A DNA stretch of 64,000 bases from Actinomycetota bacterium. GTDB lineage: Bacteria; Actinomycetota; Actinomycetes; JACCUZ01. Positions 1-43,763 of this stretch are shown one piece after another. The stretch lies in contig JAVEDI010000104.1 of the NCBI GenBank assembly GCA_030841035.1, positions 9,445 through 73,444 on the forward strand, written 5' to 3'. The notes below the pieces were generated by a model that was not told the DNA's origin, made no database searches, and saw nothing but the letters and a program-made list of their open reading frames with translations. Every line of letters starts with the position of its first letter. The stretch's first letter is position 1. Both the position numbers and the translations under genes were made by a program.

Positions 1-39
1 ATTGGTTCAGTGGACAAATACCAAGGGAGGCAAGAGCTC

Positions 40-1143
40 ATGGCGCGAGGCATCAACACAGGTGGAGACGTCGTCCGCACGACGGTGGACGGCGTCGACC
101 TCGCCACCATCTGGCAGGACATGCAGGCGGCAAACGACCTGCGCAACCGAGACCGAGACAGTCTGCGGGCGATCCTGACGCATCGCACAACGGCCGTCGG
201 CGACGAGGTCCCCCAGACGTCCGTTTTGGACGATTTCGAAGATATGTCCGAGATGGGGGCTCCCCATTCGATCCGGACCGGCATCGCCACGATCCCGATG
301 GGCTTCAACTTCAAGGACCGCGACCTGGCCGCACGCTACAGCTGGAGGTTTTTGCGTGACGCGGACGCGGCTCAAGTCGAGGCCGTTCATCAAGGCGCTC
401 TCGACGCTGATGCCCGGCAACAGCTCCAGTCGGTGATGGGCGCGCTGCTCAACAACACCAACCGGACCAGCCCGGAGGGCCTCACGGTGTATCCGCTGTG
501 GAACGCCGACGGCGTTGTGCCGCCCGAGTGGAACGGGGTCACATTCCCCGGGTCTCATTCGCACTACCTCGTGAGCAGCAGCGCTACGTTCGATGGCGGC
601 GATATCCGGGATGCCTACCAGGCTGTCGCGCATCACGGCTACGGCAGCCCGGACGTGGGCGGCAAGGTCATCGTGTTCCTCAACCCGGTGCAGGCGGACG
701 CGGCTCGCGGCTTCGTCAAGGGGACGGCGGCGACGGACCCGTTTGACTACATCCCTGGTGCATCCGCCCCGGCCTACCTCACGGACCAGACCATCGTCGG
801 TGACCGGCCTCCGGCGAATGTCGGGGCCATCTCAATCTTCGGGCAGTACGGCGCGGCGCTGCTTAGCGAGAGCTCGCTCGTCCCAAACGGCTACGTCGTC
901 GCCGTTGCCACATTCGGCAGCAACGACCAGCGCAACGTGATCGCATTCCGCGAGCATCGGCGCCCGGAGTACCAAGGGCTTCGCCAGATCCCCGGCTCGT
1001 CGCCGGAGTACCCGCTTCAGGACTCGTACTACACGCGGTCCTGGGGCACCGGCGTCCGACAGCGTGGCGGCGCGGCCGTCGTCCAGGTCAAGGCGAGCGG
1101 CTCCTACGACGTGCCCGCCGCGTACCAGACGGTCATCGCGTGA
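40..1143 (+). CDS. Putative phage major capsid protein
   Basis: The ORF is open from GTG 10, and ATG 40 is preceded by AAGGGAGG (23-30). About 368 aa, with size and composition like actinophage HK97/P22-type coat proteins. This is recognition only; no search or fold prediction was done. Confidence 0.5.
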   Translation: MARGINTGGDVVRTTVDGVDLATIWQDMQAANDLRNRDRDSLRAILTHRTTAVGDEVPQTSVLDDFEDMSEMGAPHSIRTGIATIPMGFNFKDRDLAARYSWRFLRDADAAQVEAVHQGALDADARQQLQSVMGALLNNTNRTSPEGLTVYPLWNADGVVPPEWNGVTFPGSHSHYLVSSSATFDGGDIRDAYQAVAHHGYGSPDVGGKVIVFLNPVQADAARGFVKGTAATDPFDYIPGASAPAYLTDQTIVGDRPPANVGAISIFGQYGAALLSESSLVPNGYVVAVATFGSNDQRNVIAFREHRRPEYQGLRQIPGSSPEYPLQDSYYTRSWGTGVRQRGGAAVVQVKASGSYDVPAAYQTVIA

Positions 1144-1589
1144 TGGACGCCGCTCTTGAGCCCGCCATCCTTGCGATGACGGACGCCATGGTCGCCGCCT
1201 CCGGCTGGTCCGAACGGCTCTATCCGGACAACGGCTGGCTCGCAGAAGACGAACAACTCTCAATGGTCGTCCTCACCGCACTTGGCGACGGTGCCGAGCC
1301 GTTCCCGGCTGAGCGGCTCGTCGGTGGCACGCACGTCGTCGTCTACGCCACCGGGCGCGTGCTGGCGCTGGCACCGGACGTCAGCCAGGCAACGGCAGAT
1401 GCCGCCCTGCGGGCTGCCGCGCCGACACAGGGCGTCTGCGACTACTGCCCTGAGCCGTTGCTGGGGTCCGCCGTTCTACTGCCCTACCCGGCGGGCGCAA
1501 CCGTCGTTGCCGTGAGCCTCTGCGCGGCCTGCGTCGCGTTCCTGCGCTCAACCTTCCCGACCGCCCACTACGTCACCTGTGGAGGCTGA
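1140..1589 (+). CDS. Hypothetical protein (element-encoded)
   Basis: The start overlaps the capsid stop (GTGATG). Coding-like codon bias. The C-terminal half is Cys-rich (CDYC...CAAC). Confidence 0.5.
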   Translation: MMDAALEPAILAMTDAMVAASGWSERLYPDNGWLAEDEQLSMVVLTALGDGAEPFPAERLVGGTHVVVYATGRVLALAPDVSQATADAALRAAAPTQGVCDYCPEPLLGSAVLLPYPAGATVVAVSLCAACVAFLRSTFPTAHYVTCGG

Positions 1590-1591
1590 CC

Positions 1592-1801
1592 GTGGACACG
1601 CTCAACACCGAAGAAGTGCTCGCGCTCGCAACCGAGGCGCGGAGCTGGCCGACCATCGGCGCCCTGGCCGACCGCTACCGGGTCAACGGCCGAGCCATCC
1701 GCAAGGCCGTCGCTAACGGAGATCTCCAGGCGGTTCGACTCAACGTCCTGCGCATCAACCCGGCCTCGTTCGCGGCCTGGCTGGACGCCCGACAGCCCTA
1801 A
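1592..1801 (+). CDS. Excisionase-family helix-turn-helix DNA-binding protein
   Basis: 69 aa. The central segment WPTIGALADRYRVNGRAIRKAVANGDL reads as an excisionase/MerR-type HTH. It follows the previous gene after 2 nt. Confidence 0.5.
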   Translation: MDTLNTEEVLALATEARSWPTIGALADRYRVNGRAIRKAVANGDLQAVRLNVLRINPASFAAWLDARQP

Positions 1802-1856
1802 ATCGTCGGAGGGGGCGGCCTCGGGAAAGACCGCCCACTCCCCAACAACGGAGGTA

Positions 1857-2126
1857 ATGATGGCAACCCTGCAGACCCTGCTGGCCCGGTGGCAAGGCCT
1901 CGGTCTTCGCCTTGACCCACTGGCAGCCCGAAACGCCGGGGTCTACTGCGGCGACGCGAGCGGGTGGGTGTGGCTCGCCTTGCGAGAACTCGGGGACTCA
2001 GCTCCGGTCCTGGTCCTGCTAGCGCTCCTGGAGGCGCGCGGTTACCCGGACCCGGAACGCATCCTTCTGGACGCGGTCACCGACTCGTCCGGCGGATACG
2101 CCTGGTACCGGCTCGCGGTGCGGTGA
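1857..2126 (+). CDS. Hypothetical protein (element-encoded)
   Basis: 89-aa ORF, ATG after GGAGG (1849-1853), followed by a hairpin. Confidence 0.4.
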   Translation: MMATLQTLLARWQGLGLRLDPLAARNAGVYCGDASGWVWLALRELGDSAPVLVLLALLEARGYPDPERILLDAVTDSSGGYAWYRLAVR

Positions 2127-2136
2127 CCGCGCATTA

Positions 2137-2172
2137 CTCGACCCCGCAGGAGCGAGTCGCTACGGGGTCGAG
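2137..2172 (+). terminator. Hairpin, possible intrinsic terminator
   Basis: CTCGACCCCG (2137-2146) pairs with CGGGGTCGAG (2163-2172) over 10 bp. It lies 11 nt after the stop of 1857..2126. There is no U-tract. Confidence 0.3.
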
Positions 2173-2386
2173 AGGCGCTGGTAAGGCGCGGCCACGTCAA
2201 GGAGCCGAGATAAGCGTTGCACGGCCTGACCCGACCTGCAACGACGAGATCCGACCTGGCTAGACCCCTTGAAAACATTGAAGTTCTGGTCCTAGCGCCC
2301 GGCCCTGTGCAGCCCTCACAGTAGGCCTTGGCGCACTGGTAAACCGCCCTCGGTTCTTCAACCTCAAACACGTCAAAGGAACCCCC

Positions 2387-4396
2387 GTGACGCATACAAG
2401 AACAAGGGCCGACCTCCACAAGGTCGCCGAGGCCTGTCATGGCGCGGTCTGGGAGTCCGACGACCAGTGCTCGGCCCTGTGCCCCTCGCATGAAGACACG
2501 TCCCCGTCATTGCGGATCGGGGTGGGCGACGACGGGCGGGTGACCGTCTATTGCCACGCCGGATGCGACTACGGGGACATTCGCGCGGCACTCGTGAGGC
2601 GAGGCATCCGCACGGAAACCCTCAGACCAGCGGCGGCGCAGACGCGCAGGAAGCAGAAACGGTCGGTACCAAAAAAGAAGCGACGACGCCAGCCGAAAGC
2701 CAAGCCTCTGCCGTATGACGACGACGTCGCCAAGTGGCACACGCACTTGAGGCGCAGTGAGCAACTCGGACCAGCGCGCAACTATCTCCGGACGCTCCGC
2801 GGCCTCAGTACAAGCACCATCCTCCGCTACGAGATTGGTCACCGATACGGGCGGTACGTCATCCCCGTTCGCGATGCCGAAGGGCTCCTCGTCAATGTGC
2901 GCAAGTACGACCCTGAGGCGACCAGCGACAAGATGACGAGCTGGCCGGGCCACGGTGGTTCAGTGCTATATCCGTTGGAGGCGTTGACGGAGGCCGATCT
3001 GAGCGAGGCGGTCCTGTTGTGCGAAGGCGAGTGGGACGCGCTCCTGGCCGGGCAGTACGGTCTCGTCGCCGTCACAGGGACTGGGGGCGCGAGCGCACCG
3101 CCGTCCGACCTGGACGCGTTGCGTGACCGGCGCGTGTACATCGCCTACGACTGTGACGATGCCGGGAGATCCGGAGCGCACAAGGTTGCCGCCCTGCTCA
3201 ACGAGGTCGCCAAGGAAGTGTTCGTGGTGGACCTCGGGCTCGGGCTCGGCGAGGACATCACCGACTGGTTCGTTACCCACGAGAAGACCGCCGACGACCT
3301 CCTGGCTCTTATGGCCGCTGCCGAGCCGTGGATTGAGGAAGACGAGGATGAGGGTGAGCTGTTCGTCACGCTGGCGGACCTTGAGGAGACGCGACTTCGT
3401 TGGCTGTGGGCTGGCCGCATCCCTGCCGGAAAGTTGACGATGCTGGAGGGCGACCCAGGCCTCGGCAAGAGCATGCTCTGGGCCAAGCTCGTCGCCCACA
3501 TCACGACGGGTGAACCACTTCCGGGTGACGGTGAAGTACACGACCCGGCTGACGTGCTGGTGGTCTGTGCTGAGGACGACCTGCACGACACCATCGCGCC
3601 TCGACTTCGGGCGGCCGGAGCCGACCTGCGGCGCGTGCACTCCGTGACCCTGGCGCGAGACGACAAAGGCCACCTCATTCCGCTGAGCATCCCCGAGGAC
3701 CTGCCTCGGCTCCGCAAGGCCATCGTTACGGCGCGAGCCTCGCTGATCGTCTTTGACCCGGTGATCGCGTATCTGAGCGAAACCATCAACAGCGGAAACG
3801 ACGCGAGCGTCCGGCGCGCCTTGACACCGCTCGCCGAGATCGCGCAGACCACGGGCGCGGCCGTCGTGATGATCCGGCACTTGAACAAGCAGGGAGATCT
3901 CAAGGCTCTCTATCGCGGCGGAGGCTCAATTGCGTTCATCGGAGCTGCCCGCAGCGGGCTCGTCGTTGACCGGCACCCGGAGCAAGAAGGGGTCGTCGTG
4001 CTGGCGCAGACGAAGTCCAATCTCGCGCGCGGCGTGCCGGCCCTCGCCTACTCGGTGGACTCGTGGGCCGAGGACCCAACTATCCCGGTGGTCACCTGGG
4101 GCGACGAACTAAACATCACGGCCGAGCAGTTGCTGCACAAGCCGGACGGGCGCACGGACGCACCGACGCGCGATGCCGCGGTGACCTTCCTGCGGGAACT
4201 GCTCGCAGACGGCCCTGTCGCGGCCAAGGAAGTCCAGAAGGCCGCCAGGGAAGCGGGTATCGCGTGGCGAACCGTGGAGCGGGCCAAGGAGCGGGCTGTG
4301 GCACGGACGAGGGCAGCGCACTCGGACACTGGTGTGATCAAGGGCTGGGAGTGGTTCATTCCGCGCCTCCACATCGTCCGCGAGGACGACGAGTGA
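2387..4396 (+). CDS. Bifunctional DNA primase / replicative helicase (zinc-finger + Toprim + RepA/AAA_25-like ATPase)
   Basis: Cys/His motif CPSHEDTSPSL...YCHAGC. Toprim acidic motifs LLCEGEWDAL and YDCDDAG. Walker A GDPGLGKS. GTG start after AAAGGA. Confidence 0.8.
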   Translation: MTHTRTRADLHKVAEACHGAVWESDDQCSALCPSHEDTSPSLRIGVGDDGRVTVYCHAGCDYGDIRAALVRRGIRTETLRPAAAQTRRKQKRSVPKKKRRRQPKAKPLPYDDDVAKWHTHLRRSEQLGPARNYLRTLRGLSTSTILRYEIGHRYGRYVIPVRDAEGLLVNVRKYDPEATSDKMTSWPGHGGSVLYPLEALTEADLSEAVLLCEGEWDALLAGQYGLVAVTGTGGASAPPSDLDALRDRRVYIAYDCDDAGRSGAHKVAALLNEVAKEVFVVDLGLGLGEDITDWFVTHEKTADDLLALMAAAEPWIEEDEDEGELFVTLADLEETRLRWLWAGRIPAGKLTMLEGDPGLGKSMLWAKLVAHITTGEPLPGDGEVHDPADVLVVCAEDDLHDTIAPRLRAAGADLRRVHSVTLARDDKGHLIPLSIPEDLPRLRKAIVTARASLIVFDPVIAYLSETINSGNDASVRRALTPLAEIAQTTGAAVVMIRHLNKQGDLKALYRGGGSIAFIGAARSGLVVDRHPEQEGVVVLAQTKSNLARGVPALAYSVDSWAEDPTIPVVTWGDELNITAEQLLHKPDGRTDAPTRDAAVTFLRELLADGPVAAKEVQKAAREAGIAWRTVERAKERAVARTRAAHSDTGVIKGWEWFIPRLHIVREDDE

Positions 4397-4407
4397 ACGC
4401 GGCGGAC

Positions 4408-4429
4408 CCGAGTTCTGGCCCGAACTCGG
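4408..4429 (+). terminator. Hairpin after the primase gene
   Basis: CCGAGTTC (4408-4415) pairs with GAACTCGG (4422-4429) around a 6-nt loop, 12 nt after the stop. Confidence 0.35.
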
Positions 4430-4607
4430 TGCGGAACTCCCAGCGTGCCTACCTACCTACTGGCGGTCTTGGGCGGTGTGGTGTGCAACCTCTGTGCCAG
4501 ACCGCCAAAGACCGCCCAGGCTCGCATGGGCAGCCTGGGAGTCCGGTCACAAGTTCAGTGACCGAGTTCCCTTCACATGCCTCGTCAACCAATCTCAAGG
4601 GAGTGTC

Positions 4608-5132
4608 ATGAGCAAGGGAAACCGAACTCGACGTAAGGCGGCTGGTCTGTTGCCCACCGACCAGAAGTGTCATGCCCGGAAGAAGGACGGCACCGCATGC
4701 AAGCGTCCACCTATCAAAGGCGGAACTGTGTGCCCCAGCCACGGCGGTTCAGCCCCACAGGTCCGCGCCAAGGCCGCTGAGCGGCTGCGGGAGGGCATCA
4801 TGCCGATGCTCGCCCGGCTGTGGCAGATCGCCCACGACGAGACCAAGTCGGACGCCGTGCAGTTGGCTGCTGTGCGGGACTGGCTCGACCGCGCCGGGGT
4901 CAAGGAGGCCATCGAGCTGGATGTTCGAGTGCTCCCCTGGGAGGGCCTCATCGACGGCATCGTGAGCGACGTCGACGACCGGCAGCTGTCGAGGGTGGCC
5001 CGCGTCATCAGCGGCGAGGTCGTGGACAACGGCGAGGCTGGCGAACTGCCTGACCTCACCTCCCCCACGCCGCAGGCGCAGCCGCCCATCCCGAGCCGGC
5101 GACGACGAGGGTCATCCCTAGCGCGCCGCTAG
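4608..5132 (+). CDS. Hypothetical DNA-binding protein, small-terminase-like
   Basis: ATG 4608 follows AAGGGAG. The basic N-terminus has a Cys/His cluster (CHARKKDGTACKRPPIKGGTVCPSHGGSAPQ), a pattern I associate with small packaging/DNA-binding proteins of actinophages and plasmids. Function unverified. Confidence 0.45.
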   Translation: MSKGNRTRRKAAGLLPTDQKCHARKKDGTACKRPPIKGGTVCPSHGGSAPQVRAKAAERLREGIMPMLARLWQIAHDETKSDAVQLAAVRDWLDRAGVKEAIELDVRVLPWEGLIDGIVSDVDDRQLSRVARVISGEVVDNGEAGELPDLTSPTPQAQPPIPSRRRRGSSLARR

Positions 5133-5247
5133 CGAAGCCGATACGCCGGTGTCGGCCTCTACCTGCACGAATGAACTTCGGCCTCGAACTTCTACATGCT
5201 GCTCAACCCCAAGCGGCTCAGAGCACCGCTGCAACCAAGGAGGCAGC

Positions 5248-5748
5248 ATGACCCGCACCACGCAACCCGCGCCGGTAGACGCCGACCAGGCCGACGCAGA
5301 CGCCGCCCAGGGCCCAACCGCCGACCACAGCCCTGCCAGCCCGTCTACGTCGGCCCTGGCGGCTGCTGTGGCCGACGGCAGCGTCGCCCTGTACCGGGTG
5401 CGGGTTAGCGGCACCCTGCGCAGGCTCACGTACCTCGCGGAAGGCACCGAGGCCCGCGAGGTCGCCAACTGGTACGCCGAGCGGTTGGACGAAGGCGCGA
5501 CCGTCAAGGACGTCGCCGCCGAGGCTGGCGTCCGGCCGCTGGCCGTGCGCCGGTCCGTTTGGGCTCTTGAACTTGCGGAGGCCATTGACGACGGCGACCT
5601 CGACGACCTCTGGGACGACTGCGACCCCGACGAGACGCGCCAGTTCATCATCCAGGTCTCCGACCACGACTACCCGTACGGCGAGACACCCCTCACGGAC
5701 CCCGCCAACGCGGGCGGACACGTCGTGGTCAACGGGGACCAGTCGTGA
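5248..5748 (+). CDS. Hypothetical acidic protein (element-encoded)
   Basis: ATG 5248 follows AAGGAGG. 166 aa with an acidic C-terminal half. Confidence 0.5.
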   Translation: MTRTTQPAPVDADQADADAAQGPTADHSPASPSTSALAAAVADGSVALYRVRVSGTLRRLTYLAEGTEAREVANWYAERLDEGATVKDVAAEAGVRPLAVRRSVWALELAEAIDDGDLDDLWDDCDPDETRQFIIQVSDHDYPYGETPLTDPANAGGHVVVNGDQS

Positions 5749-5753
5749 ACGGC

Positions 5754-5963
5754 CTACATGTCATCCATCAGCTTGAGCAACTTCTCGAGGGGGATGCGCT
5801 TCCCGTACTTTTCCGTGGTCTTCCCGCGCATCCAGACCACGGTTGCCTTGCCGATTCGCAGATTGCCAACGTGCTTGTCCTGAGAGTCATGGATGGCAAG
5901 CCGGATGCCGTTGTTGCCGAGGTTGATGCCGCTGACCTGATCCATCCTCATTTTGACGTTCAT
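5754..5963 (-). CDS. Small hypothetical protein (69 aa, Lys/Gly/Asn-rich)
   Basis: ATG is preceded by GGGAGG at 6-nt spacing. The local GC is the lowest in the element. It is the only minus-strand gene inside the plus-strand block and is divergent from the serine recombinase. Confidence 0.5.
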   Translation of the reverse strand: MNVKMRMDQVSGINLGNNGIRLAIHDSQDKHVGNLRIGKATVVWMRGKTTEKYGKRIPLEKLLKLMDDM

Positions 5964-6025
5964 GTGCTACCTCCCGTTGATGTTGATCAGAAGGTACAGA
6001 TCTTCGGGCCTGAAGGGGGCCGAAC

Positions 6026-6718
6026 GTGAACGTCATCGGCTACGTGCGAGTCAGCACTGACGACCAGGCCGCGTCCGGGCTGGGCCTCGACGCACAGCGC
6101 GCGACCATCGCCGGCGAGGCAGCCAAGCGCGGCTGGAGCGTGACGTGGGTGGAGGACGCCGGGCACAGCGCCAAGACCTTGAAGCGGCCAGGCGTGACCA
6201 CCGCCCTCAACCTGCTCGCCAAGGGCGAGGCGCAGGTGCTCGTCGTCGCCAAGTTGGACCGGCTCAGCCGGTCGGTGCAGGACTTCGCCGCGACGATGGA
6301 CACCGCGAGGAAACAGGGCTGGGCGCTTGTCGCTCTCGACCTGGGCGTGGACACGACCACTCCGGCAGGCGAGCTCGTCGCCAACGTGATGGCCGCCGTT
6401 GCGCAGTGGGAGCGCCGCGTCATCAGTGACCGTACGAAGGACGCTCTGGCGGCAGCCCAAGCGAGAGGAACCCGGCTCGGTCGCCCACGCGCCATCGACG
6501 CCGGGCTACTGCTCCGCATCGTGGGGCTGCGCTATGACGCCGGTCTCTCCCTACGCCAGATCGCCACCGTCCTCAATGACGAGGGCATGCCCACCGTGCG
6601 CGGTGGTCGCTGCTGGCACCCCGCCACGATCCGCGGCCTGCTCCACAGCCACCTGCTCGACCAGCCGGCCGAGGCCGAGACGGACCAATCCACCACGAAG
6701 AAATGCAGGGCAGTCTGA
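6026..6718 (+). CDS. Serine recombinase (resolvase/invertase family)
   Basis: N-terminal catalytic motif YVRVSTDDQ, a resolvase core and a C-terminal HTH (LSLRQIATVLNDEG). GTG start after GAAGGGGG. Confidence 0.9.
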   Translation: MNVIGYVRVSTDDQAASGLGLDAQRATIAGEAAKRGWSVTWVEDAGHSAKTLKRPGVTTALNLLAKGEAQVLVVAKLDRLSRSVQDFAATMDTARKQGWALVALDLGVDTTTPAGELVANVMAAVAQWERRVISDRTKDALAAAQARGTRLGRPRAIDAGLLLRIVGLRYDAGLSLRQIATVLNDEGMPTVRGGRCWHPATIRGLLHSHLLDQPAEAETDQSTTKKCRAV

Positions 6719-7881
6719 TGGCTGACAAGAAGCGCGAGCCTGTCAGGGGCTACGCGGGCATGTACAAGATCAGACGGACCAAGGGTGTCGTCTACGAGAT
6801 TCGGTACCGCGCCCGGGACGACCGAGGGGAGTGGCAGCAGTTCTCAGCGACATTCCCCACGAAGGAGGAAGCCGCTGCTGAAATGGACGAGCGCAGAGCC
6901 GCCCGCCGAAAGGGCACACACATCACACCGGCGCGGGGTCGGCGCACGTTCGGTGACGTGACCGCGCAATGGCTCGACAGCAAGGACCGCAAGGCCCGCA
7001 CGATGAAGGGCTATCAGCACATCCTCGACAGTTGGCTCGGATCGTGGCGGCACCGTCAGGTGTCCAGCATCACCTACGACGACTGTGCTTCCGTGCTCGT
7101 CGCGATGCGAACCGCCGGTCGGCACGGTCAGACGGTTCGCAACGTCTACAACGTCATGCGCGGCGTGCTCGACCAGGCGGTCGAGGCAGGGTGCATCGCG
7201 GTTAACCCGGCCACACCGCTGCGCAAGCGACTGCCGCGGAGTGGAGAACGCGACGTGTGCTTCCTAACAGCCGACCAGGTGGCGACACTGTCGGCGTCCC
7301 TCCCCGCTCCCTACGACCTCGTCGTCACGTTCGCCGCCTGGTCTGGGCTGCGAGCTGGTGAGATCGCGGGTATGCGAGTGCGCAACGTTGACCCGATGCG
7401 CCGTCGGGTCCGGGTCGAGGAGACCGTGGTCGCGCTGCGCGGTGGCTTGCAGGCCGACACTCCGAAGACACCTAAGAGCCGCAGGGCTGTGCCGCTGCCG
7501 GCGTCGCTTGCACATCTGCTGGCCGACCACATCGCCGCCCGTGGCCTCGGCCCCAACGACTACATGTTCGGCAGCCCTGATGGCAGCCCCCTCAACCACG
7601 GCCGCTTCTACCAACGCATATTCAAGCCTGCGGCCAACGGGATTGGCTTGCCGGATTTGAGGTTCCACGATCTGCGGCACACGTACGCATCGCTGATGCG
7701 GCCGCACCTTGACATGTTCGAGCTGAGTCGGCGGATGGGACACAGCACTTACCGGCTGACAGCGGACACCTACTCGCACTTGTACGAGACGGATGACCCC
7801 ACATTGGACGAGAGGCTCGACGCGGCCTTTCAGGCAGCTACGACTCCTAGCCCTGTTGTTGCGAGGCTAGTCATCGCCTAG
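6718..7881 (+). CDS. Tyrosine recombinase / phage integrase
   Basis: Catalytic signature LRFHDLRHTYASL ... HSTYRLTADTYSHLY. ATG 6718 shares one base with the recombinase stop (TGATG). Alternative ATG at 6703. Confidence 0.9.
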   Translation: MADKKREPVRGYAGMYKIRRTKGVVYEIRYRARDDRGEWQQFSATFPTKEEAAAEMDERRAARRKGTHITPARGRRTFGDVTAQWLDSKDRKARTMKGYQHILDSWLGSWRHRQVSSITYDDCASVLVAMRTAGRHGQTVRNVYNVMRGVLDQAVEAGCIAVNPATPLRKRLPRSGERDVCFLTADQVATLSASLPAPYDLVVTFAAWSGLRAGEIAGMRVRNVDPMRRRVRVEETVVALRGGLQADTPKTPKSRRAVPLPASLAHLLADHIAARGLGPNDYMFGSPDGSPLNHGRFYQRIFKPAANGIGLPDLRFHDLRHTYASLMRPHLDMFELSRRMGHSTYRLTADTYSHLYETDDPTLDERLDAAFQAATTPSPVVARLVIA

Positions 7882-7987
7882 TCACCGCGAGTTCCCATAT
7901 GGAATCCATGAGCTGACCGCAGCCAGGAGCACCGACAGAGCCGGTCTCCCGCGCTAGGTGACCAGCCCGCGCCTTGCGGGGCGGCGG

Positions 7988-8395
7988 TCAGTTGTTGGGA
8001 ATGACTGAGGGTGCTTGCAAGAGCGCGGAAATTTCGCGGTGAAGACTGCCGATAAGGACGTGTCGCTCTTCGATCTCATCGCGCAACTCGTCGACAGCGC
8101 GCTGCAGGCGCACAACCTGGTCGAGCGTGCTTGAACGATCTACATCCTGATGTTCCGCGGCCGTGCGTGGAGTCGCCGCCCTCGCAGACGCCGTTGGTCG
8201 AGGTGAACGCTTGCTGACGGCAGCCTCCCGCAGGACGTCCTCGGCGAGGACCTCCCGCAATGGTTTTTGGCCAATTGACGTCAGGCGTGTCTGCACGCGG
8301 GGTGGGTCTTTGAGTGCCCACTTGCGAATGGCCTCGACACCCAAGCCAGCCCGAGCGGAGGCTTCCTGGAGGGTCCACCACCCGTCGTCCGGCAC
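7988..8395 (-). CDS. HTH DNA-binding protein (excisionase/MerR-type) with C-terminal coiled coil
   Basis: GTG start after GAGG. N-terminus WWTLQEASARAGLGVEAIRKWA is HTH-like and the C-terminus is heptad-like. Convergent with int. Confidence 0.6.
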   Translation of the reverse strand: MPDDGWWTLQEASARAGLGVEAIRKWALKDPPRVQTRLTSIGQKPLREVLAEDVLREAAVSKRSPRPTASARAATPRTAAEHQDVDRSSTLDQVVRLQRAVDELRDEIEERHVLIGSLHREISALLQAPSVIPNN

Positions 8396-8409
8396 AGTCC
8401 TGCCTCACG

Positions 8410-8447
8410 CATTGTTGGGCAAAGTTGGTGTAATCTGGCCAACAATG
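8410..8447. promoter_or_regulatory. Candidate operator: 9-bp inverted repeat in a divergent intergenic region
   Basis: CATTGTTGG (8410-8418) and CCAACAATG (8439-8447) are perfect reverse complements with a 20-nt spacer. They sit between the starts of 7988..8395(-) and 8445..8903(+). Confidence 0.45.
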
Positions 8448-8903
8448 GGAAACGTTGGCCAACCCGAGAATACGCCGACTATGGCTCAGGAGGCCATAGT
8501 CGGCATGCTGCTGGCGTTGTCCAGGGAGCTTGAGCTCCCAGCTCGTCCTTGGCCACTAGTGGCAGCCTGCCAAACGTTGGCCAACGAGTTGCCACCGGAG
8601 TCGCCCTTCGTTGGTCACTTGGAGCGAGCCACTAGCACTCTGACCGGCGCGCAGGACGTCGAAGCATGGCTTCTCTCGCTTGCCGAGCGTGGGTCACTCC
8701 GGGCAGAGGGGCGCGCAAACGAGGCGCGCTGGATCGCGAGTCCGGACTGGTTGGCCAACTGGCAGGTCCCCGCCGCTGCGATCCAGGAGACAGAAGTCGG
8801 GGCTTGGGCTGCGGCCTCTCAGGCCCTAATGAGGTCCTTATCAATTTGGCGGAAGACTGTGTCGGCCGTGGCGAACGGGTCGGATCCGTCCGCCGAGCAC
8901 TGA
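8445..8903 (+). CDS. Hypothetical helical protein (uncertain gene)
   Basis: ATG 8445 is in frame within ORF 8163..8903; the part upstream of 8445 is antisense to the HTH gene. Its 3' end overlaps the convergent kinase gene by 85 nt, so one of the two ends may be wrong. Confidence 0.35.
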   Translation: MGNVGQPENTPTMAQEAIVGMLLALSRELELPARPWPLVAACQTLANELPPESPFVGHLERATSTLTGAQDVEAWLLSLAERGSLRAEGRANEARWIASPDWLANWQVPAAAIQETEVGAWAAASQALMRSLSIWRKTVSAVANGSDPSAEH

Positions 8904-9898
8904 CGCATGCGACGCCACCCCGACGCGTAGCGTCGCTCAGCCTCAACCCGCCACCCTCTGCCCCTGAGGGGGCGCGCGACGACCCGATAGGCGTTGCCGC
9001 CCCACTCCCCGTCCCACGCGGTTGTTTGGCCGTCAGTCGTCGGCCACTGCCAGTCAACGAATTCTGCTCGAGTAAGGGCTCTGATCATCTCGCTGGCAGC
9101 GTCGTAACGACCGTTTGCACCAGGCCGAGTCGACTTGCGCACGATCCGACGAAGCGAGTCCGGCACGTGCGGCTGGAACACGCTGTGTCGTGGCAGCACC
9201 GCCGAGCGGCCGCTCGCGAGACGTTCTGAGAGACCCTCCATGGTGTAGGTCTCATACGGGAACGGCCCCGAGAGCATCTCGGCCAGAGACATGCCCATGG
9301 AGTAGATGTCGGACTGAACCGTGTACAGCTGACCGATGAATGTCTCTGGTGGCGTCCAGAACTGTGGACTCAGCAATGGTGGGGCGGCTTCGCCGTCCAT
9401 GCGCATGGCTTCCCCGAGGTCGCCGACCTTGGCGACGGTTCCGTCCGACGTGAGAAAGAGGTTCGATGGCTTGAGGTCGCGGTGAAGCACTTTGTGAACA
9501 TCATGCAGGTGCGCGACGCCCCTCAGGCTGCGCAATGCGATGTCGCGGGCCTCGCCTGAACTGAATCGTCGTCCATTGACCATCGCGTCGAGGACGCTGC
9601 CCTGCTCGTAGTAAGGCATCATCATCTGAATCACAGCCAGCGTGCGGTCGGTGCCGGCGACCTCCGCGACGTCATAGATGTCCGCCACGTTGTCGTGGTC
9701 GATCTCTCGCAAGAAGGTGGCTTCCGTTGCGGCGAGTGTGTCTTCACGCCCGAGCAGACTGACTCTCTTGCCGACCTGCAGGGCCTGCGTGTAGATGTTT
9801 CTGTAGAGCCGGACCTCGCAGCTGCCGTAGTGCAGGGTCTTGAGCACCCCGTAGGGCAGCGTGAGGGTTCCTTCTGCGACGAGAACCTGTTTCGGCAT
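8819..9898 (-). CDS. Eukaryotic-like Ser/Thr protein kinase, cytoplasmic, with a Trp/Arg-rich C-terminal extension
   Basis: Catalytic loop HRDLKPSNLF, VGDLGEA (DFG equivalent) and TPPE (APE equivalent). No TM segment. ATG 9898 lies 4 nt after the stop of the upstream gene. Confidence 0.8.
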   Translation of the reverse strand: MPKQVLVAEGTLTLPYGVLKTLHYGSCEVRLYRNIYTQALQVGKRVSLLGREDTLAATEATFLREIDHDNVADIYDVAEVAGTDRTLAVIQMMMPYYEQGSVLDAMVNGRRFSSGEARDIALRSLRGVAHLHDVHKVLHRDLKPSNLFLTSDGTVAKVGDLGEAMRMDGEAAPPLLSPQFWTPPETFIGQLYTVQSDIYSMGMSLAEMLSGPFPYETYTMEGLSERLASGRSAVLPRHSVFQPHVPDSLRRIVRKSTRPGANGRYDAASEMIRALTRAEFVDWQWPTTDGQTTAWDGEWGGNAYRVVARPLRGRGWRVEAERRYASGWRRMRQCSADGSDPFATADTVFRQIDKDLIRA

Positions 9899-9902
9899 CC
9901 CT

Positions 9903-10472
9903 CTAGCCAATCTCGCGCGCAGTGACGAGCGCACTGGCAAACGCCGGAGCCCGGGTATCCCACTTGGGAGTTGGGTCGATCCCAAGTTCTTTGGCGACGA
10001 TGGGACGGAGTTCCTTGGAGGCAGGGGTCACTGCAAAGGTCTTCTTCACCATGTCGTGCGTCACTCGCACGACATCGGTCGACGTGCGTTGAGCCGCAAG
10101 CAACACGACCGCTTCCAGTTGCCCCCGTCGCCGCGCGTCGCTCGGGCTCATTGCTTGCTTGGAGGTACCAGCGTTCAACAGCGCGACGACTCTGGGCTTC
10201 AGCCTCACGAAAAGCGCCTGGAGGCTCTCCTCTAGCTCGGAGAGCGCTCGCGGTTCACCCAATTTGTGATCTTCGAGCGCGAGGCGATCAGCCCGGTCGT
10301 CGACGGGCTCGCCGCCTGTAGAGACCAGCCCAAACCAAACGACGCCCGCCGCCAGGTGGACGCCGAGGATCGGCGCGTCGTCTTTCGCCATGGCGATGAG
10401 TATGACTAGCGGTGACCGTTCTTGACTGGGGTTGTCAAAAGAGGCGCGCTCGGTGGGCCACACCTGGGCCAC
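9903..10472 (-). CDS. Hypothetical protein, first gene of the kinase operon
   Basis: 189-aa ORF (GTG 10472; alternative ATG 10391). The alternating beta/alpha pattern (ILGVHLA, VVWFGLV, ..VVALLNA, ..LEAVVLLAA) reads to me as an RNase H-like fold. Inference only. Confidence 0.5.
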   Translation of the reverse strand: MAQVWPTERASFDNPSQERSPLVILIAMAKDDAPILGVHLAAGVVWFGLVSTGGEPVDDRADRLALEDHKLGEPRALSELEESLQALFVRLKPRVVALLNAGTSKQAMSPSDARRRGQLEAVVLLAAQRTSTDVVRVTHDMVKKTFAVTPASKELRPIVAKELGIDPTPKWDTRAPAFASALVTAREIG

Positions 10473-10562
10473 AGAGCCACCCGCACCAGGAGCCTCCAGG
10501 ACCGTCCAAGCCAGCCGGGCGCAGGTAACGTGACCTGCGCGTTTGCGCGCAATCCCGAGGTA

Positions 10563-10652
10563 GTTGGGCGATGCATAGTGGCCTAGTGCGGCGGTCTTGA
10601 AAACCGCTATGAGGGGTGACTCTCATCGTGGGTTCGAATCCCACGCCCTCCG
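10563..10652 (+). tRNA. tRNA-Ser(UGA)-derived sequence with a defective acceptor stem (probable att remnant / pseudo-tRNA)
   Basis: Canonical D-arm (GCA TAGTGGCCTAG TGC), anticodon arm GCGGT-CTTGAAA-ACCGC (anticodon TGA), long variable arm and T-arm GTGGG-TTCGAAT-CCCAC. The 3' acceptor GCCCTCC needs GGAGGGC, but the 5' side reads GTTGGGC (5/7 pairs) with a 3-nt rather than 2-nt linker. Confidence 0.6.
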
Positions 10653-10743
10653 CCCGGCAGCACGCGGACACTGTCCTGCGGCTGCGCTCACGTGCGTACG
10701 CCGGAGACCGGTTCGCCCGGCTGCCCCCCGCTAGGCTGCGGAA

Positions 10744-11697
10744 ATGTCGCTGATCGTCACCCGCGGGCTGACCAAGAGGTTCGGTCGCGTGACGGCGCTT
10801 TCGGACCTCACCCTGGACATCCCACCCGGCGTGGTCGGCCTGGTCGGTGCCAACGGCGCCGGCAAGTCGACGCTGATCAAGATCCTGCTGGGCCTCTCGC
10901 AGGCCACCACGGGCACCGCCGAGGTCCTCGGCCTCGACGTCACGACGAACGGCGCGAAGATCCGCGAGGTCGTGGGCTACATGCCCGAGCACGACTGCCT
11001 GCCGCCGGACGTGTCGGCGACCGAGCTGGTGGTGCACATGGCGCGCATGTCGGGGCTCCCCACGACGGCGGCACGCGAGCGGGCCGCCGACACCCTGCGC
11101 CACGTCGGTCTCTATGAGGAGCGCTACCGGCCGATCAGCGGCTACTCCACCGGCATGCGGCAGCGGGTCAAGCTGGCGCAGGCACTGGTCCACGACCCGC
11201 GGCTGGTGATGCTCGACGAGCCGACCAACGGGCTCGACCCTGCCGGCCGCGACGACATGCTGGGGCTGATCCGGCGCATCGGCACCGTGTTCGGCATCTC
11301 GGTGCTCGTCACCTCCCATCTCATGGGTGAGCTCGAGCGGGTCTGCGACCACGTCGTCGTCATCGACGGCGGCACGCTCCTGCGATCGTCCTCGACGGCC
11401 GACGTGACGGCGGTGACCCAGCTGCTGCTGCTCGAGGTCGACGACGCGGTCGAGCAGGTCGCCGCCCGACTACGCGAGCTCGGCGTCGACGTACACCCGT
11501 CGGGCACGGCACTCGAGCTCGTGCTGCGCGGCGACGAGACGTACGACGCCGTGCGCGACGTGGTCGCCGAGCTGGGCGTGGGCCTGGTGCGGCTGGAGCG
11601 ACGCCGCCACCACATGCTCGACATCTTCCGACCCGACGGCGGCACACGCGTCGCGGCTGTGTCCGGCACCGGAGCGGGGGAGGTGCGCGGCGCATGA
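10744..11697 (+). CDS. ABC transporter ATP-binding protein
   Basis: Walker A GANGAGKST, signature YSTGMRQR, Walker B LVMLDEP. Confidence 0.9.
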   Translation: MSLIVTRGLTKRFGRVTALSDLTLDIPPGVVGLVGANGAGKSTLIKILLGLSQATTGTAEVLGLDVTTNGAKIREVVGYMPEHDCLPPDVSATELVVHMARMSGLPTTAARERAADTLRHVGLYEERYRPISGYSTGMRQRVKLAQALVHDPRLVMLDEPTNGLDPAGRDDMLGLIRRIGTVFGISVLVTSHLMGELERVCDHVVVIDGGTLLRSSSTADVTAVTQLLLLEVDDAVEQVAARLRELGVDVHPSGTALELVLRGDETYDAVRDVVAELGVGLVRLERRRHHMLDIFRPDGGTRVAAVSGTGAGEVRGA

Positions 11698-12572
11698 GCG
11701 AGACCGGCGTCATCCACGACATCGGCTACCGTCACTACGACGGCCCCCGACTGGGCTTGCGGTACATCACTCGCTCGCTGTTCGTGTCGAGCCTCAAAGG
11801 GGCCTACGGCTTCGGTCGCTCGGCGCGCTCCAAGGTCATGCCGCTGCTGCTGCTGGGCGTCATCACCCTGCCGGCGTTCGTCATCGCGGCGATCGTGACC
11901 ATCGGCAGCCTCGACACCCTGCCGCTGCAGTACACGCAGTACGCCGCCCGGCTGCAGCTGCTGATCGCCATCTTCGTCGCCGGGCAGGCACCGCAGATGG
12001 TGTCGCGCGACCTGCGCTTCGGTGTCGTCGCCCTGTACTTCTCCCGGCCACTGACCCGGCAGTCCTACGTGCAGGCCAAGTACGCCGCCATGGCCGCGGC
12101 CCTGTTCGTGCTGGTGACGATCCCGTTGCTGGTGCTCTACGTCGGTGCCCTGCTCGCGAAGCTCCCGGTCAGGCAGCAGACCAGTGACCTGGCCTACGGG
12201 CTGGTCGGTGCCGCGCTGCTCGCGCTGGTGCTGGCCGGGATCGGCCTGGTGATCGCGGCCTTCACACCGCGCCGCGGTCTCGGCGTCGCAGCCGTCATCG
12301 CGGTGCTGCTCGTGGCGACCGGGGTGGCTGCGACGTTGCAGGGCGTCGCTCGAGACCAGGGCAACGACACGATCGCCGGTTACGCCGGGCTGATCTCGCC
12401 GTTCACCCTCGTCGACGGCGTGCAGGTGTGGGCGTTCGGCTCGGACCCGGCCTCCCTGGCGGGGCCGCCCGGTACGACCGGTGGGCTGGTCTGTCTCGCC
12501 GTGACGTTGGCTGTCATCGCCGGCACGTACGGCCTGCTGCTGCTGCGCTACCGCAGGGTGTCGGTGTCGTGA
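11694..12572 (+). CDS. ABC-2 type transporter permease
   Basis: Multiple hydrophobic helices. The start overlaps the upstream ATPase stop (ATGA). Confidence 0.7.
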   Translation: MSETGVIHDIGYRHYDGPRLGLRYITRSLFVSSLKGAYGFGRSARSKVMPLLLLGVITLPAFVIAAIVTIGSLDTLPLQYTQYAARLQLLIAIFVAGQAPQMVSRDLRFGVVALYFSRPLTRQSYVQAKYAAMAAALFVLVTIPLLVLYVGALLAKLPVRQQTSDLAYGLVGAALLALVLAGIGLVIAAFTPRRGLGVAAVIAVLLVATGVAATLQGVARDQGNDTIAGYAGLISPFTLVDGVQVWAFGSDPASLAGPPGTTGGLVCLAVTLAVIAGTYGLLLLRYRRVSVS

Positions 12573-40972: not shown

Positions 40973-41158
40973 ATGGACCGTCCCCTGCCCGCCCGCCTCG
41001 ACGCGCCCGATCTCGGCGGCGCCCTGACCGGATTCCTGGTCGCGATCGTCCTGCTCCTCGCCATAGGGGTCGCCGCCTTCTTCTACTTCGGCGGCCAGGC
41101 GAAGGTCGACATCAAGAAGCCGAACGTCAGCGTGAGCGCCAGCCCCGAGAGCACCTGA
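40973..41158 (+). CDS. Small membrane protein (61 aa), uncertain
   Basis: ATG 40973. Single TM helix [22 protein letters not shown]. Confidence 0.4.
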
Positions 41159-41216
41159 CGAGCCGATTCGGAGCGCCCGAGCCGGTCTTGTACAGTTGCC
41201 ACGGCCCTCGGGCCAT

Positions 41217-41289
41217 GCGCCCGTAGCTCAACGGATAGAGCATCTGACTACGGATCAGAAGGTTGGGGTTTCGAATACCTCCGGGCGCG
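41217..41289 (+). tRNA. tRNA-Arg(ACG)
   Basis: Acceptor GCGCCCG/CGGGCGC (7/7), D-arm TAGCTCAACGGATAGAGC, anticodon arm TCTGA-CTACGGA-TCAGA, T-arm GGGGT-TTCGAAT-ACCTC. Confidence 0.9.
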
Positions 41290-41395
41290 CCCACGTGATC
41301 ATGGTCCTGAGCAGGGCAAGCGCCGTTCAGGCCTAACCTGGGGACGCGACCTCCCCAGCCACATCGCTCGTCCACGATGCCGCATCCGGCGGCAG

Positions 41396-41530
41396 CTACA
41401 CCGGGCGCAGCTGCGAGACCCGCGCACTGAGCGTGCGGATCGAATGCGACCAGCCGATCCGCTCCGCGATCACCGTGGCCGCATCGTCGGGAACGCTGTC
41501 AACCGCTCCCGGATCCGTGGCTCGACCGCA
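41396..41530 (-). pseudogene. Remnant of a transposase N-terminal HTH domain
   Basis: Minus-strand translation ...VPDDAATVIAERIGWSHSIRTLSARVSQLRPV* resembles the HTH segment (..ATVIAERIGW..LRERV.ELRP.Y) of actinobacterial IS transposases. It is truncated by a stop and has no catalytic domain. Confidence 0.3.
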
Positions 41531-41566
41531 CCCACCACCGACCCCGCCGGTGTCCGTTGCTGCCCC

Positions 41567-43096
41567 TCAAGGTGGCTCGGAGGTCTCTGGGTCCTCCGAA
41601 TGTGTCAACCATGCGACATCGTCCATGGGCAATAGCAGAGCTTGGCCGCGAGGAGCCATTGGCCCCTGGCCATGAGTCGGCTGCCTCCCTTCGGGATCAT
41701 GAACGACAGTCGCGGAAGTCAGCTCAAGCAGGATCCGGCCCTCGCTCAGTTCAACCAAACGGTCGAGTCGCCCTCGGACGACCATTTTCGACCTCAAATG
41801 CACTTCGGCCGATCGACCTCTTAGCTCGGCGATCCACGTTCGGAGGTCGATTCTTGCTTCCCGAGCCGGTCTTCTCTTTGGAAGCACGACTGTCTCCTTC
41901 AACTCGTGCGGCGTGGGCGGCGGATCAACGTTCGTGTCGCGCCCTTCCATGGCACCCCCGCTCCGTTTTCGGGCCGTCGCGGCGAACGTACGTAGTGCGC
42001 GACCACCATGCACAAGGGTTGGCGCGGCGGCGGGCACGATCGTCAACGGCGCGTTTTGAGCGACGGCCGCCAAGCCGAACACTGCGAAAACGGCGGCCAC
42101 CAGGCCATCTAGGGCCCCTAGGTTTGCCCCCAGTTGCGAGAGCAAGTCAGAGCCACTCACACCGGTCAGCAGTTGTCGCGAGAGGTTCCGAACGTCTTCC
42201 GGGAGCACATCAGTCTGACCCAGAACGACTCCACCGAGGACCCGATGCTTTTGCCCTCTCAACAGTCGCTCCAGCGCCGGATCAGCCTCGATGTACCGAG
42301 GAATGATGATCAGTGAGACCGACGACTGCTCGTGCGGGTCCCTCGCCATGTGCGCGGCCAGCGAGATGCCGACCGCCACGTCTGGAGCAGAATCCGGTGA
42401 TTGCGGAACGACTATGACAACTCGCTCCGCCAACTTGTCGCACATTGGGAAGTAGCCGGCTGGCAGCTTTGGGTAGAGGATCCCACGTTCTGCCTCAAGA
42501 TTCGGTGAACGGAATACTGACCATTTCCCGTCACAACTCGCGCCGGCGCTCGGGAGGCAGCTTTTGTCCGCATGACGCGTCCGGTCGTTGGTCGCCCCCA
42601 GCCTGGCCAGGTATCGGTGATAGACCCGATTCTGGTTGGCTGCCGGTTGAATGAGCAGTGGCACGTCAAGGTCGGTTGCGCACCGTGCCGCTTTCCATGC
42701 CGCCTCGTTGCTGTCATTTCGAGCCATGGCAACCGGCGGCCCATTTACCGGTGACGTGCTCCAGAACAGCGACGCAAGTTCTGCAGTGTCCACGCGCGTC
42801 GGGCCCCCAACACGGGTGAAAGACGCGGCCACCGGAGCCGGATTCAAGAACCCTGAGAACAGATACACCGACGCGACCAGGGCCGTCAAAGCAATGCCCA
42901 GCTTGAGCCAATGCTCGGCTGATGACCCGAAGAGCCGCGCAAGGGCCACGAGGAGACAAGTGGCAGCACCGATCAGCGCAACCACTGTGAGCTCCAGTGG
43001 GCCACCCTTTATCCATGACAGGGCCCCGGTGATCGCTAGCGCGAACGCGATGCCCGACCAGGGTGCGGCCCTTCGAAGCGATAGCGTTTGGGCCAT
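41567..43096 (-). CDS. Hypothetical membrane protein (possible cell-wall-binding-repeat-2-like ectodomain)
   Basis: 509 aa. N-terminal TM helices and one further TM near residue 330. Segments GGPTRVDTAELASLF...DLDVPLLIQPA recall CW_binding_2 repeats. Visibly lower GC than the surroundings. Confidence 0.6.
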   Translation of the reverse strand: MAQTLSLRRAAPWSGIAFALAITGALSWIKGGPLELTVVALIGAATCLLVALARLFGSSAEHWLKLGIALTALVASVYLFSGFLNPAPVAASFTRVGGPTRVDTAELASLFWSTSPVNGPPVAMARNDSNEAAWKAARCATDLDVPLLIQPAANQNRVYHRYLARLGATNDRTRHADKSCLPSAGASCDGKWSVFRSPNLEAERGILYPKLPAGYFPMCDKLAERVVIVVPQSPDSAPDVAVGISLAAHMARDPHEQSSVSLIIIPRYIEADPALERLLRGQKHRVLGGVVLGQTDVLPEDVRNLSRQLLTGVSGSDLLSQLGANLGALDGLVAAVFAVFGLAAVAQNAPLTIVPAAAPTLVHGGRALRTFAATARKRSGGAMEGRDTNVDPPPTPHELKETVVLPKRRPAREARIDLRTWIAELRGRSAEVHLRSKMVVRGRLDRLVELSEGRILLELTSATVVHDPEGRQPTHGQGPMAPRGQALLLPMDDVAWLTHSEDPETSEPP

Positions 43097-43763
43097 GGAG
43101 GCTCCTCAGTGGCCGCGAATTACGCAGCACAGTGCCGTGCGGCCAGGTTAACCGCCGCAGCGATGAATTTACGGACCTCTCTACGGATTGCAGTCGCTCT
43201 TCGACCCACGATGCGCGCGCTCTGTTGTCTTTGTCGGGGATCGTGGGGAAACGGCCTTTGTCGCTGGGCGAGCACCAGGTTTCTCGCCTCGACAGGACCG
43301 AGCGGGTGCCGCGCAAGCTACTCAGGGTCGCGGTGGTCTTCTGCACGGCGCTTGCACCTGATGGGTGACCAAACCCTTGGCGACGACCGCCGCCGCGGCA
43401 GGGGCGCCGAGTAGCAGCAGAAGGCCGACCACTGGTCCGGTGGCACGCAGTTGCTCGGGTGGGCGGCCCCATCGTCGTCCAGAGTTTGGATGCTCTCCTT
43501 TCCCCTTCTCCGCTTGATCCCGCCAGCGGCGACTTTCATCTCGGTGTGGCAGAAGCCGGCCCCGCGTCGGCCGGTGCGACAGCACCGCGTTCTGCGCAGG
43601 CCCTCTCTCTCGTCCCCGAGCCCGGAGCTTCCGCGATCCGCCGGGACGAGTGCCGCAGCTCACACAAGAACTCGCCCCGGTGTCACGCGGGTGACAGCGC
43701 GGCGTCCTCGGACGGACGACGGTCAACAACAACCGCAGCAACACAACCACGAAGGAGAAGTCC

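Follow-up and report, generated by a model that had tools for sequence, protein, structure and literature searches.

Organization and conservation of the kinase cassette

A 64,000-nucleotide stretch of contig JAVEDI010000104.1 from an Actinomycetota bacterium (assembly GCA_030841035.1), the whole of which we refer to as the window, holds near its beginning a small gene cassette built around a Hanks-type Ser/Thr kinase and a RuvC-fold protein encoded directly upstream of it, called here the partner. Comparison with homologous loci (numbered from L001 below) firmly established the cassette as a rare and patchy, horizontally mobile and conserved unit of three to four genes. Its features, in window coordinates, are as follows:

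9903..10391, minus strand: partner gene, encoding a 162-aa RuvC-fold protein without the RuvC catalytic residues
8819..9898, minus strand: kinase gene, whole (359 aa)
9074..9898, minus strand: N-terminal part of the kinase (aa 1-275), with the TLTLPY motif and the Hanks-type Ser/Thr kinase domain
8819..9073, minus strand: C-terminal domain of the kinase (aa 276-359 and stop), basic and Trp/Arg-rich
8445..8903, plus strand: third gene, encoding a 152-aa protein whose family was not recognised, convergent on the kinase gene
7988..8395, minus strand: fourth gene, encoding a 135-aa protein with a MerR/excisionase-like helix-turn-helix (HTH) and a C-terminal coiled-coil-like region
8410..8447: inverted repeat CATTGTTGGGCA / TGGCCAACAATG, a candidate operator in the intergenic region of the third and fourth genes

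On the minus strand the TAG of the partner gene (9905..9903) is followed by aggg and then by the kinase ATG at 9898, so that the spacing is exactly 4 nt, as an earlier reading made from the DNA alone (the sequence-only reading) had stated; both genes are real, and in homologous loci they overlap by 1-8 nt. That reading had, however, assigned the partner 189 residues, from the longest open reading frame (ORF), 9903..10472, which begins at GTG 10472. Homologues of 159-167 aa were found, the two nearest measuring 165 and 167 aa, while full-length members farther removed typically have 154-170 aa; because all homologues start at the equivalent of ATG 10391, the gene is probably 9903..10391 and its product 162 aa long.

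The partner lies directly upstream of the kinase in all 14 loci of one survey, among them the window, L001-L010, L138 and L139, on a Curtobacterium flaccumfaciens plasmid (L140) and likewise in L141-L145, which were reached by starting from two remote partner representatives, P0093 (profile E-value 4e-8) and P0113 (1.9e-4). This order is kept in every locus examined, down to 26-34% identity; the plasmid kinase, for instance, has 34% identity, and the 152-aa protein encoded upstream of it aligns with the partner profile at an hhalign probability of 98.2% (E 4e-14). Among the loci examined we found no member of the kinase family without the partner and no partner without the kinase. The hosts include Nocardioides, a Nocardioidaceae metagenome-assembled genome (MAG), an Acidimicrobiales MAG and Curtobacterium, and the cassette was found in Actinobacteria only. 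The pair had been described as a two-gene operon: it does form one strictly co-conserved unit, but the unit also comprises the third gene and often the HTH gene.

The third gene runs on the opposite strand and overlaps the 3' end of the kinase gene by 85 nt (8819..8903). Its position and orientation are unchanged in each of the 13 distinct main-family loci for which downstream sequence was available. Detection relied on hidden Markov models built from alignments and run against all six-frame ORFs of the fetched loci, which also recovered the gene in four loci (L005, L007, L138 and L139) where the gene caller had listed none. Its frame is the sole open one, and its G+C pattern over the three codon positions (GC1/2/3) fits a coding region. 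The large protein database holds only 14 homologues, several of them on contigs equal in size to kinase-bearing ones.

In seven loci a TANNNT hexamer (TAATCT, TAGGTT, TATTTT, TATTCT, TATCCT, TATCTT or TAGAGT) stands exactly 8 nt before the ATG of the third gene. This is the geometry expected of a leaderless actinobacterial mRNA, and the hexamer would be a conserved -10 element placed as for a leaderless message. A scan with the sigma-70 consensus returned no promoter at the locus, where terminator-like sites occur at chance level. Inside the third gene, a 14-mer, AAACGTTGGCCAAC, which contains the palindrome TTGGCCAA, recurs exactly at 8450 and 8572 and with 79% agreement at 8746; it takes part in an inverted repeat as well (8576-8589 with 8746-8759).

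A homologue of the fourth gene, divergent from the third, is present in seven fetched loci, some of them without any integrase. Pfam HTH_17/MerR matches are weak and sub-threshold and were obtained for two of six members; phrog_66 (0.014) and PADLOC mad1 (0.0023) likewise match weakly, and the profile found no match in the PDB. We considered the fourth gene as an excisionase of the island and rejected this, as it accompanies the cassette where the fetched flanks show no integrase; a further reason is the presence of a separate HTH_17 gene in L007 and L009 (and faintly in L139).

The divergent intergenic region of 49 nt holds the 12-bp inverted repeat, the right arm of which covers the ATG of the third gene. 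A different palindrome, perfect or near-perfect, AAATGTAGTTT(n3-4)AAACTACATTT, stands at the corresponding position in L008 (about 9460..9485) and L010 (about 9455..9480). In this distant clade another small divergent gene takes the place of the HTH gene; the palindrome separates it from the third gene and is probably an operator.

A pseudo-resolvase coupled to a kinase with an intact active site

The sequence-only reading had proposed an RNase-H-like fold for the partner, with His where RuvC-type nucleases carry Asp. Structure prediction bears this out and specifies the fold: the AlphaFold model (predicted local distance difference test score, pLDDT, 96; predicted template-modelling score, pTM, 0.90) retrieved bacterial RuvC as all of its top 12 PDB matches in Foldseek (E 1e-9 to 3e-7; template-modelling (TM) score 0.67-0.84, mostly 0.72-0.84). 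The model superposes on RuvC of Deinococcus, Thermus, Pseudomonas and E. coli, and on phage RuvC-like resolvases too. Sequence comparison agrees at the level of the family: a profile of 31 partner sequences matched RuvC in all of its top six hits to PDB sequences (best 1.7e-5), and an exhaustive profile search yielded 57 partner representatives. The single sequence is less informative, giving only spurious ABC-ATPase matches in the PDB, a sub-threshold match to Pfam RuvC (PF02075; 0.074, 13.4 bits vs 22.2) and 1.1e-5 to the NCBIfam RuvC model NF000711 (25.4 bits vs a cut-off of 163). PADLOC and PHROG gave no match to the partner, and Pfam and NCBIfam gave matches below threshold only.

The catalytic tetrad of RuvC (D7, E66, D138 and D141 in E. 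coli; H143/D146 in Thermus) is not kept. The first catalytic Asp (D7) is replaced by His in the partner and by Asn in some family members; E66, the 'AIEQ' Glu, corresponds to a variable position occupied by Leu/Asn, D138/H143 to another variable position and D141/D146 to Pro149 of a conserved W-x-x-R-A-P-A-F-A motif (in one of the active-site alignments the E. coli RuvC sequence was entered by hand). Conserved within the partner family are instead G10, R36, P66, R89, E93, W144 and R147, and the region matching the conserved 'VK' segment of RuvC is kept as VTHxxVKK. With its catalytic positions lost, the partner is a pseudo-resolvase. This loss, together with a score of only 25 bits where the cut-off is 163, sets it apart from the housekeeping RuvC, a family whose match would have spoken against a novel module. 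Nor did any other refuting condition of the sequence-only reading that computation can address, such as missing co-conservation or a mainly core-genome setting, turn out to apply.

The kinase matches Pfam Pkinase at 9.6e-29 (101 bits vs a gathering score of 31.7), and a 36-member family alignment reaching down to 33% identity shows the following as invariant or nearly so: K44 (beta3), E59 (alphaC), H139-R140-D141-K143-N146, D160 (of D[LF]G), P184-E185 (of PPE), R264 and an N-terminal TLTLPY motif. The HRDLKPSN, DLG and TPPE motifs noted earlier are thus kept at positions conserved across the family, and the earlier failure to find a canonical Gly-rich loop agrees with the same alignment, in which GxGxxG is absent and the loop is degenerate, reduced to hxGxsEVR with one conserved Gly. 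Active kinases can have degenerate Gly loops, and this is no argument against activity; since the catalytic residues are intact across the family, the kinase looks active as judged from its sequence. Among 5.8 billion proteins, 61 kinase clusters were found at E<=1e-30, with members of about 360 aa that align over most of their length, save a few truncated sequences and one outlier of 557 aa.

Pfam found no domain outside the kinase domain, and NCBIfam gave no match to the C-terminal part either. The Trp/Arg-rich C-terminal domain had been recognised from the sequence, though at about 100 aa rather than the approximately 85 aa found here; it is conserved (D282-W283, W295, G297, W316 and W328-R329), basic (median pI 9.9) and confidently modelled. 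AlphaFold2, run on this domain alone with 33 sequences, predicts four long antiparallel strands followed by a helix (pLDDT 92). The domain had no PDB sequence match and no significant Foldseek match to a PDB fold (best E 0.13), so the model describes a fold without known relative in the PDB.

The product of the third gene is mildly acidic (median pI 5.5) and had no match in Pfam, PADLOC, PHROG or NCBIfam. Weak single-repeat matches of its profile to designed alphaRep/HEAT proteins in the PDB (E 0.002-0.03) hint that it is possibly a helical-repeat protein.

Mobile elements and defence genes around the cassette

Within the window, the cassette is part of a block of lower G+C content that spans 1..~10,500, with the shift in composition at ~10,500. 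The partner has a G+C content at third codon positions (GC3) of 0.72, the kinase one of 0.76 and the integrase one of 0.79 (0.67-0.76 across the cassette), vs 0.93 in the ABC-transporter gene just past tRNA-Ser; such low values beside a core gene identify the cassette as horizontally acquired DNA. The other features of the block are as follows:

6026..6718, plus strand: serine recombinase (Pfam Resolvase 1.5e-39)
6703..7881, plus strand: tyrosine integrase (Pfam Phage_integrase 1.3e-17; phrog_1 1.1e-63)
10563..10654, plus strand: tRNA-Ser(tga), found by ARAGORN, at the border of the low-GC3 island and the core genome
10..1143: phage major head protein (phrog_3990, 2e-104)
2387..4396: Toprim/AAA_25 primase-helicase

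With this block ends, on the right, an island of prophage-like or satellite-like character, the left end of which lies beyond the start of the window. The head protein gene is only about 1.2 kb upstream of the primase-helicase gene, which is followed by a weak small-terminase-like ORF (4476..5132), and this compact head/primase/terminase-like order resembles a satellite or degraded prophage more than a standard prophage arm. The serine recombinase and tyrosine integrase genes stand in tandem with a 16-nt overlap, two recombinase families in one apparent operon. Direct repeats that could mark attachment sites (att) were sought near the cassette and over the whole of 1..12000, with chance-level matches only, and tRNA-Ser faces the cassette with its 5' end, not its 3' end; an att-proximal placement of the cassette in the window is plausible. 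Further along the window, a second patch of low G+C content (0.62-0.65) at 41000..43500 directly follows tRNA-Arg(acg) (41216..41293) and may be another small island; its ORFs of 509 and 383 aa had no Pfam match.

The homologous loci place the cassette among the cargo of mobile elements rather than in the core genome. Integrases lie within a few kb of it in the window, L004, L005, L007, L009, L139 and L144. L009 and L139 share the order tRNA 3' end, cassette, integrase and then the rest of the element, and the att-proximal cargo slot is clearly seen there. L139 also has the integrative and conjugative element (ICE) genes TrwC and TraG, and Replic_Relax is present in L009 and L010; on the Curtobacterium plasmid the cassette adjoins genes for TniQ and an AAA ATPase, a Tn7-like transposon module. 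L007 carries a tRNA-Arg(acg) too, some 2 kb upstream of its cassette-adjoining integrase. No integrase was detected in the fetched flanks of L001, L003 and L008. L003, a 20-kb locus from Nocardioides antri in which none was detected at all, has the cassette between dnaB and a gene for an extracytoplasmic function (ECF) sigma factor. The dnaB gene directly upstream of the cassette there (6956..9685, 909 aa) apparently carries an intein-like insertion, to judge from the sequence ...SGCLTADTRL... to ...VHNS....

As a qualitative observation, the cassette repeatedly adjoins known or candidate defence genes in independent loci. PADLOC identified MzaB (7.6e-59) and PDC-M33C in L005, NsnB/HEC-03B (4.9e-58) in L008, HEC-07 (4.5e-16) in L003 and PDC-M19B (1.7e-33) in L001. 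Other neighbours include AbiEi/AbiEii in L009, toxin-antitoxin genes (PIN, nucleotidyltransferase, DUF433/DUF5615) in L007 and L141, and a DNA methylase with a Vsr or HATPase protein in L005 and L144. In L144 (2073..7670) a gene for a 643-aa HATPase_c_3 protein, preceded by the DNA methylase and integrase genes, overlaps the partner start by 4 nt and may therefore be co-transcribed with the partner; a second, unrelated Pkinase gene (446 aa) lies just downstream of the cassette.

Proposed function and relation to known systems

The cassette accompanies mobile elements and defence genes, which makes it a good candidate for an anti-phage system, based on a kinase, that has yet to be described. 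The reading we put forward, and hold to be about evenly balanced between right and wrong, is an anti-phage system of the abortive-infection or toxin-antitoxin-like kind, with the kinase as effector, the dead RuvC as sensor or adaptor and the third protein as inhibitor or regulator. The anti-phage or abortive function is something we infer solely from genomic context, and the view of the kinase as effector is drawn by analogy with Stk2, PD-T4-6 and the Stk of prophage 933W, as the most economical one.

According to this proposal, the partner and kinase would be translationally coupled, and the dead RuvC would, most simply, bind branched DNA—for example intermediates of phage replication or recombination—without cutting it or, alternatively, would bind a phage protein. 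The former is attractive because the RuvC fold and some basic segments are retained in the partner. The third protein, a candidate inhibitor or regulator of the kinase, might act in an antitoxin-like manner, its expression being tied to the kinase operon by the overlap of the convergent genes and governed by the HTH protein, a candidate transcriptional regulator. Once released, the kinase would phosphorylate host proteins, phage proteins or both, and growth or phage development would stop. The most specific form of the proposal, in which the dead RuvC senses four-way junctions or forks of replicating phages or plasmids and activates a kinase that the third protein holds off in uninfected cells, is one we regard as rather unlikely to be correct.

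Several points weigh against an anti-phage function. The link to defence is guilt by association, a qualitative one drawn from about a dozen loci; the partner, the third gene and the C-terminal domain had no above-threshold PADLOC, PHROG or Pfam match, so that only the kinase domain links the cassette to a validated system; and some loci lack the HTH gene or have another gene in its place. Neither the matches from IMG/VR viral contigs nor the GenBank phage collection included a family member, the scan of IMG/VR and metagenomes being keyed on the generic HRD motif of the kinase and returning only unrelated kinases (<=36% identity); an association with prophages is therefore not general. Finally, a toxin-antitoxin-like addiction module or an anti-defence function would leave an identical genomic signature.

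Addiction, with the kinase as toxin and the third protein, the partner or both as antitoxin, would stabilise the mobile element and leave the cassette with no dedicated anti-phage role. The compact architecture with its HTH regulator and candidate operator, the small convergent gene with its overlap of the kinase gene, the frequency of toxin-antitoxin genes among the neighbours and the residence on a plasmid, ICEs and a prophage-like island all suit such a module. However, the cassette is also found in chromosomal islets beside defence candidates, with no integrase in the fetched flanks (L003 and L008), and a toxin-antitoxin pair has no need of a conserved RuvC-fold protein. We think addiction unlikely as an account in its own right, although many toxin-antitoxin systems act in defence and the two readings overlap. 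The cassette might also serve as an anti-defence or establishment factor, its kinase phosphorylating host defence or repair proteins and its dead RuvC acting as a decoy or inhibitor of host junction-processing enzymes. Carriage by mobile elements fits this role, and competition of a RuvC mimic for junctions or RuvAB is conceivable. The phage T7 kinase is reported to phosphorylate such host proteins, and phage kinases can disarm host defences (PMC13645617). It nevertheless seems improbable to us, and more so than addiction, as copies lie beside chromosomal defence genes where the fetched flanks hold no mobile-element genes (L003 and L008), no member appeared in the phage collections searched, and the HTH and convergent-gene layout suggests tight repression, more like that of a dangerous effector than of an early establishment gene.

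The two remaining explanations fit the distribution poorly. A function in the control of recombination, where the RuvC-like protein binds the Holliday junction made by the integrase, the HTH protein is an excisionase and the kinase sets directionality, was suggested by the integrase adjoining the cassette in the window, L007 and L139, by the weak similarity of the HTH protein to excisionase-type HTH_17, and by a fold that is that of a junction-binding enzyme. Yet L001, L003 and L008 lack an integrase in their fetched flanks, the plasmid copy stands beside a TniQ module, and a separate HTH_17 gene lies next to the integrase in L007, L009 and, faintly, L139, which makes this role very unlikely. 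More improbable still is an ordinary cellular signalling kinase with an accessory protein and no tie to genetic conflict. Hanks kinases are numerous in Actinobacteria and the best NCBIfam match is a generic PknB-type model, but the 87 bits obtained fall far below the equivalog cut-off of 450, the cassette is extremely rare and patchy, its GC3 is foreign and its loci are always accessory or mobile.

Anti-phage systems based on kinases number, to our knowledge, only a handful, and what triggers most of them is unclear. The pairing seen in the cassette is fixed and minimal: an intact kinase goes with a nuclease-dead fold of the Holliday-junction-resolvase type, accompanied by a small domain that is new and by a convergent gene whose overlap is unusual. 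Were the cassette to act in defence, it would exemplify the reuse of a pseudo-enzyme for immune sensing or as an adaptor, and would be a further system, one peculiar to Actinobacteria. Should the pseudo-resolvase sense DNA structure, the cassette would represent a new class of bacterial immune sensor, a pseudo-nuclease that reads branched DNA and is wired to a protein-phosphorylation effector, and could prove more distinctive than yet another kinase-based conflict system. The plasmid copy in Curtobacterium flaccumfaciens shows that the pair occurs in a cultured plant pathogen.

The sequence-only reading did not recognise the pairing as a known system, and our comparison concurs: PADLOC v2 is without a model for the partner or the third gene and matches the kinase through generic kinase-domain models only, and a description of a RuvC-like and Hanks-kinase cassette was not found in the literature searched. 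The best PADLOC match of the kinase is mad6 (2.3e-33), PD-T4-6 models reach 5.8e-29 and account for 21 of the 25 matches listed, all over the kinase domain alone, and PHROG assigns it to the Ser/Thr-kinase family phrog_2361 (1.5e-33). Automated tools may accordingly label it 'PD-T4-6' or 'mad6' from kinase-domain similarity alone, and such calls on actinobacterial kinases can mask distinct multi-gene systems.

MAD6 (MADS) and PglW (BREX type 2/Pgl) are also defence-associated Hanks kinases but, unlike the cassette kinase, are large multidomain proteins of methylation-linked systems of six to eight genes. The cassette kinase scores 60.8 bits vs 460 on the NCBIfam model for MAD6 and 34.5 bits vs 990 on that for PglW, and the window cassette has no methyltransferase, mad or pgl partner genes; its neighbours are the integrase, the HTH gene and a tRNA. 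In HipBA and HipBST a kinase toxin is combined with small partners and an HTH regulator in a similar three-to-four-gene logic, but HipA is a member of another kinase superfamily, with no detected sequence relation to the cassette kinase. The partner, for its part, shares the fold and detectable sequence homology of the bacterial and phage RuvC Holliday-junction resolvases, from which it differs by four lost catalytic positions, the lack of a ruvABC context and its constant coupling to a kinase. TEFM and Spt6, inactive RuvC/YqgF-like scaffolds that were both among the Foldseek matches, likewise have an RNase-H-like resolvase fold without nuclease chemistry; they are eukaryotic transcription factors without a kinase link, and the likeness to the partner is one of principle only.

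The Stk of Stx prophage 933W is a prophage kinase that excludes phage HK97. It is also encoded in a prophage accessory region, but it is distant in sequence (tblastn against 933W-like Stx phages gave 24.6% identity over aa 58-329) and comes from a different phylum, and the short immunity-region records show no annotated RuvC-like partner. For eukaryotic-like Ser/Thr kinases, a role as effectors of defence is accepted (PMC9519451, which cites Stk2, as PMC13645617 also does). Stk2 of Staphylococcus epidermidis and PD-T4-6 of E. coli are, like the cassette kinase, Hanks-type kinases on accessory DNA, and they are cytoplasmic as the cassette kinase probably is, and the proposed logic is alike, with the kinase as an effector activated on infection. 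The likeness to the PD-T4-6 models is confined to the catalytic domain (aa ~58-278), whereas the TLTLPY motif and the C-terminal domain are peculiar to the cassette kinases. Stk2 and PD-T4-6 are single-gene systems; here, the kinase is always accompanied by the RuvC-fold partner and, in the main family, by the convergent third gene.

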